DNA of 56,469 nucleotides from Oscillospiraceae bacterium (lineage in GTDB: Bacteria > Bacillota > Clostridia > Oscillospirales > Oscillospiraceae), in the NCBI GenBank assembly GCA_045642545.1, contig JAZUJB010000096.1, positions 1 to 56,469 of the forward strand. The letters run 5' to 3'. Made by a program: the position numbers and the translations under genes. The notes under the pieces were generated by a model. The model was not told the DNA's origin. It made no database searches and saw only the letters and a program-made list of their open reading frames with translations. This document shows positions 46,947 to 53,552 of this stretch, piece by piece. Position 1 is the first letter of the stretch. Every line of letters starts with the position of its first letter.

Positions 46947-48452
46947 ATGGCAACATACTTTAACGAACCGTCAAGAACATTCAGCGAGTACCTGCTTATC
47001 CCGGGTTATACAAGTGAAGAATGCACCCCCGCAAATGTAAGTCTTAAGACTCCGCTGGTAAAATTCAAGAAGGGCGAAGAGCCCGCAATAAGCCTGAATG
47101 TGCCTTTTACCTCAGCAATCATGCAGTCGGTATCGAATGACACCATGGCAATTGCCCTTGCAAAAGAGGGCGGCATATCCTTTATCTACGGCTCTCAGTC
47201 TATCGAGGACGAGGCTGCAATGGTAGCAAGAGTAAAAAGCTACAAGGCAGGCTTTGTAACCTCCGCATCAAATGTCAAGCCTGAGCAGACTCTGGCAGAC
47301 ATTCTCGACCTTAAAGAGAAGAACGGCTTCTCCACCGTTGCGGTTACCGAGGACGGCACTGCAAACGGCAAGCTCCTCGGCATCGTTTCCAGCCGCGACT
47401 ACCGCGTAAGCCGTATGAGCACCGACACCAAGGTCAAGGAGTTCATGACTCCGCTTGAGAAGCTTGTAACCGCTCCTGAGGGCACCTCCCTTAAGGAAGC
47501 AAACGATATCATCTGGGACCATAAGCTGAACTCTCTGCCCATTATTGATGCAAAGGGCAATCTTCAGTACTTTGTCTTCCGCAAGGACTATTCAGAGCAC
47601 AAGGCAAACCCCAATGAAATTCTCGACAGTCAGAAGCGCTATATCGTCGGTGCAGGTATCAACACCCGCGACTATGAGCAGCGCGTTCCCGCACTCGTTG
47701 AAGCAGGCGTGGATGTTGTCTGCCTCGACTCCTCTGACGGCTACTCCCACAGACAGAAGACCGCAATTGAGTTTATCCGCGCAAAGTACGGCGACTCTGT
47801 AAAGGTCGGCGCAGGCAATGTTGTTGACCGTGACGGCTTTATGTTCCTCGCAGAAGCAGGCGCAGACTTTGTTAAGGTCGGTATCGGCGGCGGCAGTATC
47901 TGCATCACTCGTGAGACCAAGGGCATCGGCCGCGGTCAGGCAACCGCACTCATCGAAGTTACCGCTGCAAGAGATGAATACTTTGAAAAGACCGGTATCT
48001 ATGTTCCCGTATGCTCCGACGGCGGTCTTGTACACGATTACCACATGACTCTCGCACTTGCAATGGGTGCAGACTTCCTCATGATGGGCCGCTACTTTGC
48101 CCGTTTTGACGAAAGCCCCACAGAGAAGCTCATGATTAACGGCGTATTCGTCAAGGAATACTGGGGCGAGGGCTCCAACCGAGCACGCAACTGGCAGCGC
48201 TACGATATGGGCGGCCGCGGCGGCAAGCTCTCCTTTGAGGAAGGCGTTGACTCCTATGTAACCTACGCAGGTCCTCTGCATGACAACCTCGAGAAGAGCG
48301 TTTACAAGATTAAGTCCACCATGTGCAACTGCGGTGTAACCAATCTTGCGGACCTCAAGCGCGATGCAAAGCTGACTCTGGTATCCTCCGTCAGCATCGT
48401 CGAGGGCGGCAGCCACGATGTCATCCTCAAGTCCTCACGCGGAAACAACTGA
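46947..48452 (+). CDS. guaB: IMP dehydrogenase family protein (with CBS pair)
   Basis: TIM barrel with an active-site loop [12 protein letters not shown] and an inserted CBS pair. Length is 501 aa. Confidence 0.8.
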
Positions 48453-48464
48453 TAAATAATACAA

Positions 48465-48497
48465 AACTCCTCAACCTTCGGTTGGGGAGTTTTTTTA
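48465..48497 (+). terminator. Intrinsic terminator of guaB
   Basis: Stem ACTCCTCAACC/GGTTGGGGAGT with loop TTCG, followed by T7. Confidence 0.85.
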
Positions 48498-48532
48498 TCT
48501 GAAATTAATTCACACAAATTTTGTAGGAATTG

Positions 48533-48561
48533 TTGACAAATCCGTTTTTGTGGCGTATTAT
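48533..48561 (+). promoter_or_regulatory. Sigma-A promoter of the cys leader-cysK-cysE transcription unit
   Basis: TTGACA, 17 nt, TATTAT. Confidence 0.65.
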
Positions 48562-48614
48562 ACACAAGGAAACAAAACCTATGTAATTTGTAGGAATTAA
48601 AAGGAGCGATGACA

Positions 48615-48689
48615 ATGACCAAAATGACCGCTAACAATATCTGTTGCAACATCTGTAGCTGTCGATGTTGTTGTCGTCGCATGCCATGA
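48615..48689 (+). CDS. Candidate Cys-rich leader peptide (MTKMTANNICCNICSCRCCCRRMP; 26 aa if started at ATG 48609)
   Basis: AAGGAG lies 8 nt upstream of the ATG at 48615. Seven of 24 codons are Cys (6 TGT, 1 TGC). The ORF sits between a consensus promoter and an intrinsic terminator upstream of cysK. Confidence 0.6.
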   Translation: MTKMTANNICCNICSCRCCCRRMP

Positions 48690-48715
48690 TTTTGTAACAC
48701 ACACTACATTATTAT

Positions 48716-48745
48716 GCGACGGCTGTATTATGCCGTCGCTTTTTT
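48716..48745 (+). terminator. Attenuator terminator in the cysK leader
   Basis: Stem GCGACGGC/GCCGTCGC with loop TGTATTAT, followed by T6. It ends 23 nt before the cysK ATG. Confidence 0.75.
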
Positions 48746-48768
48746 GTTGAAATGAAAGGAAAATTAAA

Positions 48769-49701
48769 ATGAAAATATATAAGTCCGTTGATGAATTAGT
48801 AGGTAATACCCCTCTTGTTGAGCTGAGAAATATTGAAAAGTCCGAAAATCTCGCAGCAAGACTGCTTGTCAAGCTTGAAAAGGCAAATCCCGCAGGCTCT
48901 GCAAAGGACAGAGTCGCAAAGGCGATGCTCGACGATGCCGAGGCAAAGGGCATAATAGGCGAGGGCAGCGTAATCATTGAGCCCACAAGCGGCAACACGG
49001 GTATAGGCCTTGCGGCAATCGGTGCAGCAAGAGGCTACCGTGTTATCATCGTAATGCCCGACAGTATGTCAAGGGAGCGTCAGCTGCTTATGACAGCCTA
49101 CGGTGCAGAGCTTGTACTGACTGAGGGCAAGCTTGGTATGGTAGGTGCAATCGCAAAGGCCGAGGAGCTTAAAAAGGAGATACCCGGCAGCATCATTGCA
49201 GGCCAGTTTGAAAACCCCGCAAACCCCGCCGCACACCGAGTTACAACCGGCCCCGAAATCTGGAACGACACCGACGGCAAGGTCGATATTTTCGTAGCAG
49301 GCATCGGCACGGGCGGCACGGTAAGCGGCACGGGTGAATATCTCAAGCACCGCAACAAAAACATAAAGGTAGTCGGCGTTGAGCCCGCAGGCTCACCTCT
49401 GCTCACAAAGGGCAGCGCAGGCGCGCACGGAATTCAGGGTATCGGCGCAAACTTCGTGCCCGATAACCTCGACAGAGATATCCTTGATGAGATTATGACC
49501 GTAACCGACGAGGACGCATATGCAGCCGGCAGAGCAATTGCACGCAGGGAGGGCCTGCTTGTCGGCATAAGCTCGGGCGCGGCACTTCACGCGGCAATCG
49601 AGCTTGCAAAGCGCAGCGAAAACTACGGCAAGACCGTTGTTGCGCTTCTCCCCGATACGGGCGAGAGATATCTCAGCACTAAGATGTTTATGGAGGACTG
49701 A
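48769..49701 (+). CDS. cysK: Cysteine synthase A (O-acetylserine sulfhydrylase)
   Basis: PLP lysine region NPAGSAKDR, TSGNTGIGLA, and GIGTGGT. Confidence 0.93.
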   Translation: MKIYKSVDELVGNTPLVELRNIEKSENLAARLLVKLEKANPAGSAKDRVAKAMLDDAEAKGIIGEGSVIIEPTSGNTGIGLAAIGAARGYRVIIVMPDSMSRERQLLMTAYGAELVLTEGKLGMVGAIAKAEELKKEIPGSIIAGQFENPANPAAHRVTTGPEIWNDTDGKVDIFVAGIGTGGTVSGTGEYLKHRNKNIKVVGVEPAGSPLLTKGSAGAHGIQGIGANFVPDNLDRDILDEIMTVTDEDAYAAGRAIARREGLLVGISSGAALHAAIELAKRSENYGKTVVALLPDTGERYLSTKMFMED

Positions 49702-49704
49702 CCG

Positions 49705-50334
49705 TTGTTCCGCGATTTGTTTGAAACAGTAAATGCATATATGGAAAGAGACCCTGCAGCGAGAAATCCGCTTGAGATTCTGCTGCTTTATCCCGGTGTA
49801 AAGGCAGTGCGCTATCACCGCAAGGCACATTGGTGCTATGAGCACGATTTCAAGTTCCTTGCACGAGCAATTTCGCAGCTGTCGCGCCATCGTACGGGCA
49901 TTGAAATTCATCCCGGCGCAAAAATCGGCAGACGCCTTGTGATTGACCACGGTATGGGCATCGTGATAGGCGAAACTGCGGAGATTGGCGATGACTGCCT
50001 TATCTACCACGGAGTAACCCTCGGTGGTACGGGCAAGGACAGCGGTAAGCGCCACCCCACAATAGGTAATAATGTCCTTATCGGAACGGGCGCAAAGGTG
50101 CTCGGACCGTTCAAGGTAGGCGATAACAGCCGTATTGCGGCAAATTCCGTAGTGCTCAGCGAAATTCCGTCTGACAGCACTGCTGTCGGTGTACCCGCAA
50201 GAGTTGTAAAGCGCAAGGGCGTCAAGACAAACTACGCAGGCGAGGTCGACCAGGTCAGCGTATCCGACCCCATTGCAGAGGAGCTTGCGGCAATCCGCCG
50301 CGCTCTGTGCGAGCTGAATACACGCCTGCAGTAA
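49705..50334 (+). CDS. cysE: Serine O-acetyltransferase
   Basis: SATase N-domain (DPAARNPLEILLLYPG), IHPGAKIG, and hexapeptide repeats. TTG start with GGAGGA 7 nt upstream. Confidence 0.9.
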   Translation: MFRDLFETVNAYMERDPAARNPLEILLLYPGVKAVRYHRKAHWCYEHDFKFLARAISQLSRHRTGIEIHPGAKIGRRLVIDHGMGIVIGETAEIGDDCLIYHGVTLGGTGKDSGKRHPTIGNNVLIGTGAKVLGPFKVGDNSRIAANSVVLSEIPSDSTAVGVPARVVKRKGVKTNYAGEVDQVSVSDPIAEELAAIRRALCELNTRLQ

Positions 50335-53475: not shown

Positions 53476-53552
53476 GCCTCCGTAGCTCACCGGGATAGAG
53501 CGTGCGCCTCCTAAGCGCAAGGTAGTGAGTTCGAGTCTCGCCGGGGGTGCCA
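53476..53552 (+). tRNA. tRNA-Arg (anticodon CCT)
   Basis: 77-nt cloverleaf: acceptor GCCTCCG/CGGGGGT, D stem GCTC/GAGC, anticodon stem TGCGC/GCGCA, loop CTCCTAA, T arm GTGAG-TTCGAGT-CTCGC, encoded CCA. Confidence 0.9.

Follow-up and report, generated by a model that had tools for sequence, protein, structure and literature searches.

What controls a cysteine-synthesis operon whose promoter is followed, ahead of the first structural gene, by a short cysteine-rich open reading frame (ORF) and an intrinsic terminator? The question is raised by the cysK-cysE locus of an Oscillospiraceae bacterium (assembly GCA_045642545.1, contig JAZUJB010000096.1), which we analyzed within a stretch of 56,469 nucleotides, hereafter called the window. 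The original prediction, made from the letters of this DNA alone, took the region upstream of cysK to be a transcription attenuator of the trpL/hisL type that senses cysteine through a leader peptide. By combining pattern scans, RNA folding, comparison with relatives and literature searches, we consider it likely that the element is a cysteine-responsive, ribosome-mediated, four-segment transcription attenuator that controls cysK-cysE, a reading that rests on sequence comparison and on modelling of ribosome positions.

How Clostridia regulate cysteine synthesis is known only in part. In Clostridium perfringens, C. botulinum and C. kluyveri, cysK-cysE is preceded by a cysteine T-box (Andre et al. 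2010, PMC2940859), and the 2010 C. perfringens study states that cysK of several clostridia has no T-box and that "other mechanisms may exist" (PMC2940859). The element would bring cysteine synthesis in Firmicutes within the reach of classical leader-peptide attenuation, and it offers a concrete, testable mechanism for the abundant, mostly uncultured Oscillospiraceae of the gut.

Leader anatomy and alternative RNA helices

All parts of the element lie on the forward (+) strand. A sigma-70-type promoter, with TTGACA at 48533-38, a 17-nt spacer and TATTAT at 48556-61, matches the consensus at 11 of 12 positions in a pattern scan; it scores highest among the seven promoter-like matches in a 2-kb scan and is kept in all relatives. 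Between this promoter and the structural genes lies a 24-codon leader ORF (48615..48689) encoding MTKMTANNICCNICSCRCCCRRMP and ending with a stop codon, which has its own start (ATG at 48615), its own stop (TGA at 48687-89) and its own consensus Shine-Dalgarno (SD) sequence, AAGGAG (48601..48606), 8 nt upstream of the start. An in-frame ATG at 48609 is only 2 nt from the SD and is absent in the relative L162, and we therefore assign the start to 48615. The leader is enriched in codons for the final product of the pathway encoded downstream: seven of its 24 codons are Cys, compared with 1.7% in the window genes, and six of the seven are written TGT. On both strands of the whole 56-kb window it is the most Cys-rich short ORF preceded by an SD, the next-best having four to five Cys in a comparison that leaves out their coding context. 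This unannotated ORF illustrates how small regulatory ORFs are overlooked by genome annotation.

An intrinsic terminator separates the ORF from the first structural gene. It consists of the hairpin GCGACGGC-N8-GCCGTCGC at 48716-39, with an 8-bp stem (seven G-C pairs) and an 8-nt loop, followed by T6 at 48740-45 (48716..48745 as a whole), and the end of T6 lies 23 nt from the cysK ATG at 48769. The upstream gene, guaB, has a separate terminator of its own at 48463-93; given that the hairpin at 48716 is 3' of the promoter and 5' of cysK-cysE, it occupies the position of an attenuator. The downstream genes, named cysK and cysE in the original prediction, were confirmed by equivalog models: cysK (48769..49701), encoding O-acetylserine sulfhydrylase, scores 427.6 bits with TIGR01139 (cut-off 350.95), and cysE (49705..50334), encoding serine O-acetyltransferase, scores 239.6 bits with TIGR01172 (cut-off 210.65). 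The EpsC model NF041874 scores slightly above TIGR01172 on the cysE product, with 242.2 bits.

The leader RNA folds with z = -4.9 relative to dinucleotide shuffles, and none of 200 shuffles is as stable. Four segments form mutually exclusive pairs. Segment 1, GCGATGAC (48606..48613), is the 5' arm of helix P1 and pairs with 48673-80. Segment 2, GTCGTCGCAT (48673..48682), spans the Arg-Arg-Met codons and can pair either with segment 1 or with segment 3, ATGCGACGGC (48714..48723). Segment 3 in turn forms the antiterminator with segment 2 or the terminator with segment 4 (48732..48739), which is the terminator 3' arm. Reading the sequence and scanning it for patterns bore out the coordinates originally given for the promoter, SD, ORF and terminator, and the four segments agree with the prediction in sequence and in complementarity. 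Two further hairpins complete the fold. The inner hairpin P_in, GCAACATC / GATGTTGT (48646..48671; arms 48646-53 and 48664-71, 10-nt loop), lies inside the ORF and would possibly act as a pause or timing hairpin, while a middle hairpin of variable sequence (48688..48713) closes the antiterminator loop as its inner stem. When the window sequence is folded singly, the 1:2 helix stretches to 14 bp. We rejected this longer helix since its extra six pairs are not conserved and are better accounted for by P_in; the conserved part is the 8-bp core only.

Conservation, codon choice and the ribosome-position model

Scans with CysK yielded 80 genomic and 80 metagenomic loci; closer relatives, with CysK 80-97% identical, were found by protein search, and DNA was taken around eight of these proteins. 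The resulting alignment holds 16 distinct leader sequences. The nearest CysK relatives are 97% (ENA ERZ27247179) and 95% (NCBI GCA_045643645.1) identical, homologues at 83% identity carry the label Oscillospiraceae bacterium, and an exact look-up of the window's own CysK in a large assembly index returned no record. The leader is present at every close-relative locus fetched, ten in all (CysK identities of 97, 95, 92, 87, 83, 82-83 and 80%). Homologous leaders, each with promoter, SD and terminator, also occur at three genome loci (L001-L003; CysK 74-76% identical) and three metagenome loci (L081-L083; 75-76%), where the peptide follows the pattern ..MNTCC(C)GICACRCQRRR[MV]P.

What is kept among these leaders is the machinery of translation and the RNA. 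The SD core GGAGCG is invariant in 16 of 16 sequences and the first A of AGGAGCG is found in 15 of 16, the spacing to the start codon is unchanged, and the TGA stop is invariant in position, two codons past segment 2. Five Cys positions are constant, and the N-terminal residues drift (MTKMTANNI, MKTMSVNSI, MRTTAAKTY, MHIANVIVMNT). The window group and the L001 group are set apart by the sole internal gap block, which comprises 9 columns, so the reading frame is preserved. In the window and all 15 relatives, a G+C-rich hairpin is followed directly by at least five U. Judged from the aligned sequences, this pattern is that of a translated sensor rather than of a peptide with its own function. 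We also observed that the leader accompanies cysK-cysE despite a different upstream neighbour, L161-L167 and L170-L172 differing in this respect from L168, L169 and L173-L175; most loci have guaB there, and the L168 group has a divergent gene for a YitT-family membrane protein.

The helices are conserved to a similar degree. Over the 16 sequences the P1 core (48606-13 with 48673-80) is paired in 92% of the alignment cells, P_in in 95% with two compensatory pairs, and the terminator in 91%, likewise with two compensatory pairs. The terminator swaps G-C<->A-U and C-G<->U-A, in seven of 16 sequences at each pair, and its covariation score is reached by no shuffle. The middle hairpin exists in each relative with a differing sequence, with compensatory pairs reported by RNAalifold. 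Seven compensatory pairs are present in the structure that RNAalifold returned without prompting, which comprises P1, P_in, the middle hairpin and the terminator. The antiterminator core (48673-82 with 48714-23) is paired in 89%, with five invariant pairs and four showing a one-sided change. At the two positions where segment 3 covaries with segment 4, the opposing bases in segment 2 are G and U, which tolerate both versions, and such wobble-compatible changes are, as far as an alignment can tell, the expected look of a strand constrained by two partners.

These patterns bear on the idea that the ORF encodes a functional Cys-rich micropeptide, either metal- or redox-binding or the precursor of a ribosomally synthesized and post-translationally modified peptide, whose position upstream of cysK is incidental. 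Five conserved Cys and a C-terminal RRMP motif conserved in many relatives would suit such a peptide. However, the non-Cys residues drift, the conserved C-terminal codons coincide with segment 2, and analogous ORFs elsewhere share only Cys codons and an R-C-C core. Between the near-identical leaders of L001 and L083, a synonymous TGT>TGC change is coupled with CAG>CGG (Gln>Arg) in P_in; the amino acid change tracks a base pair, which indicates that selection keeps the RNA pair and not the peptide. No modification enzyme is found among the neighbours examined (guaB upstream, cysK-cysE and an ABC transporter), and a profile of the leader peptide searched against 5.8 billion proteins found no credible homologue, giving one marginal match (E 0.5) in a collection of gene calls from which peptides so short are absent. 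We regard a functional micropeptide as very improbable.

Codon choice in the leader departs from that of its surroundings. In codon counts from 34 long ORFs of the window, Cys is written TGC 214 times and TGT 27 times, a TGT share of 11%, against which six TGT among seven has a binomial probability of about 1e-5. Across 22 distinct leaders of all lineages the TGT:TGC ratio is 83:28, compared with 182:644 in neighbouring genes. The last Cys run of the window leader is directly preceded by CGA, which accounts for 30 of 645 Arg codons in the window genes, and a CGA codon comes before a Cys run in 21 of the 22 leaders. UGU is decoded by tRNA-Cys(GCA) through a G:U wobble, and the decoding of CGA relies on an I:A wobble that is inefficient; classical attenuators are known to use rare regulatory codons, such as the rare CUA of the Salmonella leu leader. 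The TGT bias may stem partly from the needs of RNA pairing, because U pairs with both A and G. With this proviso, the leader is a natural example of apparent selection for rare codons (UGU and CGA) in a sensor ORF.

We infer the following course of events. Transcription would start at about 48568, as placed from the consensus promoter, and a ribosome would load at the SD (48601-06) and ATG (48615) and translate the 24-codon leader behind the advancing RNA polymerase. With ample Cys-tRNA(Cys), the ribosome would reach the TGA at 48687 and cover segment 2 (48673-82); segment 3 would then pair with segment 4, and the hairpin and U6 would terminate transcription 23 nt before cysK. With scarce Cys-tRNA(Cys), the ribosome would stall at the first Cys codons (48642-62), where UGU is rare and read by wobble, and the exposed segment 2 would capture segment 3 in an antiterminator of -18 kcal/mol, allowing read-through into cysK-cysE. 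If the leader were not translated, segment 1 (48606-13) would sequester segment 2, leading to termination.

The computed energies are compatible with such a switch: -27.5 kcal/mol for the P1 region, -18.4 for the antiterminator hairpin, which is longer than its core and includes the inner stem 48688-48713, and -17.3 for the terminator, so that the three states are comparable. In relatives the antiterminator ranges from -18 to -29 kcal/mol and the terminator from -11 to -19. Equilibrium folding with a masking ribosome and the full terminator was discarded as a test, as the terminator always wins and ribosome positions are not discriminated. The model used is instead a co-transcriptional snapshot in which segment 3 has emerged and segment 4 is not yet made, with a 30-nt ribosome mask placed at each codon. 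In this model the window leader without a ribosome has segment 2 held by P1, with an antiterminator probability (P) of 0.07. With the ribosomal A site at Cys 10, 11, 14 or 16 and pairing across the ribosome excluded, P rises to 0.5-0.96, and from Cys 18 through the stop it is 0.00. By this model only the first four Cys codons, at 48642, 48645, 48654 and 48660 (48642..48662), would be productive sensors; the Cys-Cys-Cys run lies within the P_in 3' arm, adjoining segment 2. The contrast is about 1.0 versus about 0 in 11 of the 16 leaders and only 0.5 in three L168-type leaders, and the rows of two L165-type leaders are uninformative, having been scored at the wrong Cys codon. The modelled behaviour matches the original prediction, in which a ribosome at the stop gives the terminator and one at the first Cys codons the antiterminator; in the model the antiterminator, exclusive with the terminator, would be masked in the former position and free in the latter. 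The conserved frame and stop, the covarying terminator and the dual pairing of segment 2, together with the lack of T-box and S-box matches reported below, support the trpL/hisL-type logic assigned to it.

Several points weigh against an attenuator of this kind. The antiterminator helix shows one-sided, wobble-compatible changes only, with no double compensatory pair, and has two C.A mismatches in three L168-type sequences; moreover, few lineage splits underlie the compensatory changes elsewhere, for an effective sequence number of 1.9. At equilibrium the terminator is favoured at every ribosome position (P >= 0.84), so the switch must be assumed to be kinetic, as in trp. Stalling at the last three Cys codons would, in the model, cover segment 2 and favour termination. 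Given that segment 1 lies at the SD and start, it stays uncovered when a ribosome stalls at the regulatory codons, the first Cys pair included; with base pairing around the ribosome permitted, P1 forms again, lowering the antiterminator P to 0.01-0.16 for A sites at 48642-51. Read-through would therefore require that P1 be unable to re-form, which is plausible on steric grounds or through a queued second ribosome. Finally, CymR-like boxes at the promoter could be the main regulator, as described in the next section.

Relation to known cysteine control systems and to CymR-like boxes

The leader resembles classical attenuators of Proteobacteria (trpL, hisL, leuL, thrL and pheL) in having a promoter, an SD-led ORF rich in codons for the end product, a rare regulatory codon, exclusive 1:2, 2:3 and 3:4 pairings, an intrinsic terminator just before biosynthetic genes, and a stop positioned such that segment 2 is masked by a ribosome terminating there. 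It differs in that cysteine is sensed, in that the host is a clostridial (Oscillospiraceae-like) bacterium, in that segment 1 is located at the SD and start and not inside the coding region, and in that an extra conserved hairpin lies inside the ORF; moreover, no sequence or Rfam relationship connects them. A comparative study of 2005 stated that Firmicutes regulate no aminoacyl-tRNA synthetase genes by classical attenuation and use T-boxes instead (PMC1262725).

The cysteine T-box shares with the window element the genes controlled, the choice between termination and read-through, a signal from tRNA-Cys charging and its occurrence within Clostridia; it differs in binding uncharged tRNA directly via a UGC specifier, with no need for translation. 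No T-box match was found in 48400-48850 even at E <= 10, nor at the gathering score in the whole window. Likewise, no Rfam family, the S-box (SAM riboswitch) included, matches the leader region, no regulatory RNA family was detected in the window, and none was found upstream of cysK in 20 relatives; the best cis-regulatory Rfam match reaches 20 bits against a cut-off of 100. The family is missing from Rfam, and the covariance model now made could be used to annotate metagenomes.

Sensing through Cys codons has precedents. In mycobacteria, experiments have established leaderless short ORFs with polycysteine tracts, which make up a "Cys ribulon" (Canestrari et al. 2020, bioRxiv 10.1101/834739), and Cys leader ORFs have been predicted in Actinobacteria (Seliverstov et al. 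2005, PMC1262725). The mycobacterial ORFs share with the window leader runs of Cys codons, ribosome pausing that reports the Cys-tRNA supply, association with cysteine-metabolism operons and independent evolution at several loci. They differ in being leaderless, in belonging to another phylum and in showing no sequence similarity, and the one that has been dissected (Ms5788A) unmasks a downstream SD without a terminator. The window element, by comparison, has an SD, a 5' untranslated region of about 47 nt and an intrinsic terminator, and it is not leaderless: the -10 hexamer ends at 48561 and translation starts at 48615, with the consensus SD 8 nt upstream. The second precedent is uORFC-8-2, an upstream ORF with a Cys-Cys pair and a terminator that is predicted ahead of the Rhodobacterales cysS gene (Brewer et al. 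2021, PMC8632094). It too is a predicted ribosome-mediated attenuator with tandem Cys codons, two stems and a terminal U run; it differs in controlling cysteinyl-tRNA synthetase and not synthesis, in occurring in Alphaproteobacteria and in having two Cys codons, mostly UGC, versus seven here, mostly UGU.

A full-text literature search for a Cys leader peptide associated with cysK, or occurring in Clostridia or Firmicutes, returned nothing relevant. The mechanism is a textbook one and Cys-codon sensing is precedented elsewhere, and the device is undescribed, in the literature searched, for Firmicutes and for cysK-cysE. The element is kept in a clade of Oscillospiraceae-like gut bacteria and appears to belong to a wider, unannotated set of leaders that sense cysteine. 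Within that literature, the claim that the device is new holds for this phylum and these genes; as a general statement it was too strong, the principle being known in mycobacteria and predicted in Actinobacteria and Rhodobacterales. The leaders of mycobacteria and Rhodobacterales had been missed at that stage, as had the P_in hairpin and the boxes considered next.

Two 27-bp sequences resembling CymR-binding sites flank the promoter. Box 1, TAATTCACACAAATTTTGTAGGAATTG (48506..48532), abuts the -35 hexamer, and its block TTTT[GA]TAGGAATTGTTGACA is kept in L161-L167 and L170-172; box 2, CAAAACCTATGTAATTTGTAGGAATTA (48573..48599), lies between the predicted transcription start and the SD. Both candidate operators end in TAGGAATT, and similar boxes occur in many relatives. 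The core [AG]TAGGAA is enriched 6.5-fold sense-upstream of cysK, occurring at 45 of 153 related loci, and usually sits in AAAAC[AC]TA-N9-[AG]TAGGAA[AT]T. The box is conserved in sequence without covariation, as would be expected of a DNA operator. Compared with the presumed Bacillus subtilis CymR consensus, TAAWNCN2ANTWNAN3ATMGGAATTW, box 2 matches 16 and box 1 matches 15 of the 19 specified positions.

A CymR-type (Rrf2) repressor at the two boxes might be the main or even the sole agent of cysteine control at cysK-cysE, with the ORF and terminator forming a constitutive or vestigial leader. The enriched core favours this explanation, most of the 45 loci being without a Cys-rich ORF, as do the resemblance of the promoter-flanking boxes to the presumed consensus and the fact that cysK in Bacillales is known to be under CymR as master regulator (PMC2940859, PMC3828012). 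Nevertheless, it leaves unexplained the seven Cys codons, the rare-codon bias, the fixed stop, the covarying terminator and the exclusive helices. Moreover, no CymR/Rrf2 gene was found among the window ORFs tested, in which only a weak, sub-threshold Rrf2 match to a GntR-family protein appeared. We consider CymR-type control as the main or sole mechanism unlikely; the two layers are compatible and not exclusive. The CymR/CysK repressor of Bacillus and Staphylococcus has in common with the window locus the box-like sequences flanking the cysK promoter, and it differs from attenuation in that its control is a protein-DNA interaction at initiation that responds to O-acetylserine; here it would be an added layer. 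From the boxes, a CymR-type repressor probably acts on the cysK promoter as a second control layer above the attenuator.

Other Cys-rich leaders upstream of cysK in Clostridia

The original prediction had suggested looking for the ORF in relatives, and beyond the 16 sequences in which the Cys-rich ORF and the alternative helices are kept, Cys-rich ORFs recur upstream of cysK. When SD-preceded short ORFs with at least three Cys, including a Cys-Cys pair, were sought, they were found sense-upstream of cysK in 20 loci (0.29/kb), with none antisense and 0.014/kb in other parts of those loci, an approximately 20-fold enrichment; with roughly seven independent families behind the 20 loci, the nominal P of 8e-20 overstates the evidence. 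These counts also bear on whether chance alone has brought a small ORF together with a site resembling a promoter and a hairpin resembling a terminator in the window. In the 2-kb region terminator-like (3 versus 2.0) and promoter-like (7 versus 2.3) matches are barely above those in shuffled sequence, as a chance origin would have it; on the other hand, conservation and covariation in 16 distinct sequences, the enrichment just described and the fold z of -4.9 speak against it. Chance is the least probable of the explanations weighed here, and the comparative data have effectively refuted it.

Two of these leaders, those of L013 and L016, have terminators of their own, and the covariance model made from family A (R1) recognises L016 with 30 bits (E 5e-5). 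About 230 nt separate the L016 element (2636-2762), a divergent homologue of the window attenuator upstream of cysK, from that gene, and a separate promoter apparently lies in between. The 9-mer CGATGTTGY is enriched 47-fold upstream of cysK. The corresponding motif CGA-TGT-TG[TC] (Arg-Cys-Cys) occurs at 48663-48671 of the window and in L011, L012, L016, L041, L054, L057, L086, L090, L111 and L140; nearly every cysK leader ORF has it, even those with no other relationship, and its sharing could reflect common descent, RNA pairing or a codon-level aid to stalling. Scanning for the 9-mer also uncovers smaller ORFs without terminators, among them MKITTKRCCG, MQIHRKERCCR and MLSFFMLRCCR. The eight other CGATGTTGY sites of the window were rejected as leaders; they lie in long frames, one base off R-C-C, and read Asp-Val-Ala/Val.

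A second type of leader is seen at L140 (1204-1313; also L135, L144, L154 and L158), L012 (2910-3001) and L041 (2892-3001), where the ORFs are 11-19 codons long, include one or two Cys codons and lack a terminator. By eye or in minimum-energy folds, the cysK SD region finds a pairing partner in the 3' ends of these leaders, as exemplified in L140 by CGGTAAAC with GTTTACCG, and such leaders may be translational attenuators like the mycobacterial ones. The window ORF might by analogy sense cysteine but act on cysK translation, by exposing its ribosome-binding site, which is how the validated Cys-sensing ORFs of mycobacteria work (10.1101/834739) and what the terminator-less L140, L012 and L041 leaders suggest for other Clostridia. 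A canonical hairpin with at least five U in the window and all 15 relatives argues otherwise, as does the full-leader fold, in which the cysK SD region (~48755-60) is unpaired and a terminator stands in place of SD sequestration. We judge a translational output of the window leader to be quite improbable, and retain transcription attenuation for it.

Two further families were noted. Family C (L111, L114, L116, L120 and L123; ~1075-1205, about 300 nt upstream of cysK) has an ORF of 39-42 codons, ..WMNTMCCSNVCTCMDRCCCRICVRENQKAGLR, that shares the pattern MNT.CC..C.C..RCCC with the window leader and is followed by a long, complex 5' region; a pattern scan found no canonical terminator there, and the family-A model did not detect this family. 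Family B (L090, L091, L152 and L160; ORF MTKEKRMWGRMRCCCACAHEK) is Cys-rich and has its own promoter and CymR-like box, with a second promoter and further boxes, and no terminator, between the ORF and cysK.

Only tentatively can these leaders be joined in a broader picture, one that we hold to be rather doubtful, in which the window element would belong, as one branch, to a large superfamily, so far unrecognised, of cysK leaders that sense cysteine in gut Clostridia. Nearly all members would carry the rare-codon core CGA-UGU-UGY, with CGA as a possible sensitiser, and they would usually be layered on a CymR-type operator. There may be two outputs in this picture, a terminating one (the window, L001-3 and L016) and an SD-sequestering one (L140, L012 and L041). 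If this were true, the slowing by CGA of the decoding of the next Cys codon would be a tuning of attenuator gain not described before.

Elsewhere in the window, the minus-strand ORFs at 48302-48700 and 48597-48998 were judged spurious from their antisense overlap with guaB and cysK. Positions 20-453 hold a 5S rRNA gene and, after it, three tRNA genes, and a lone tRNA gene lies at 53476-53549.

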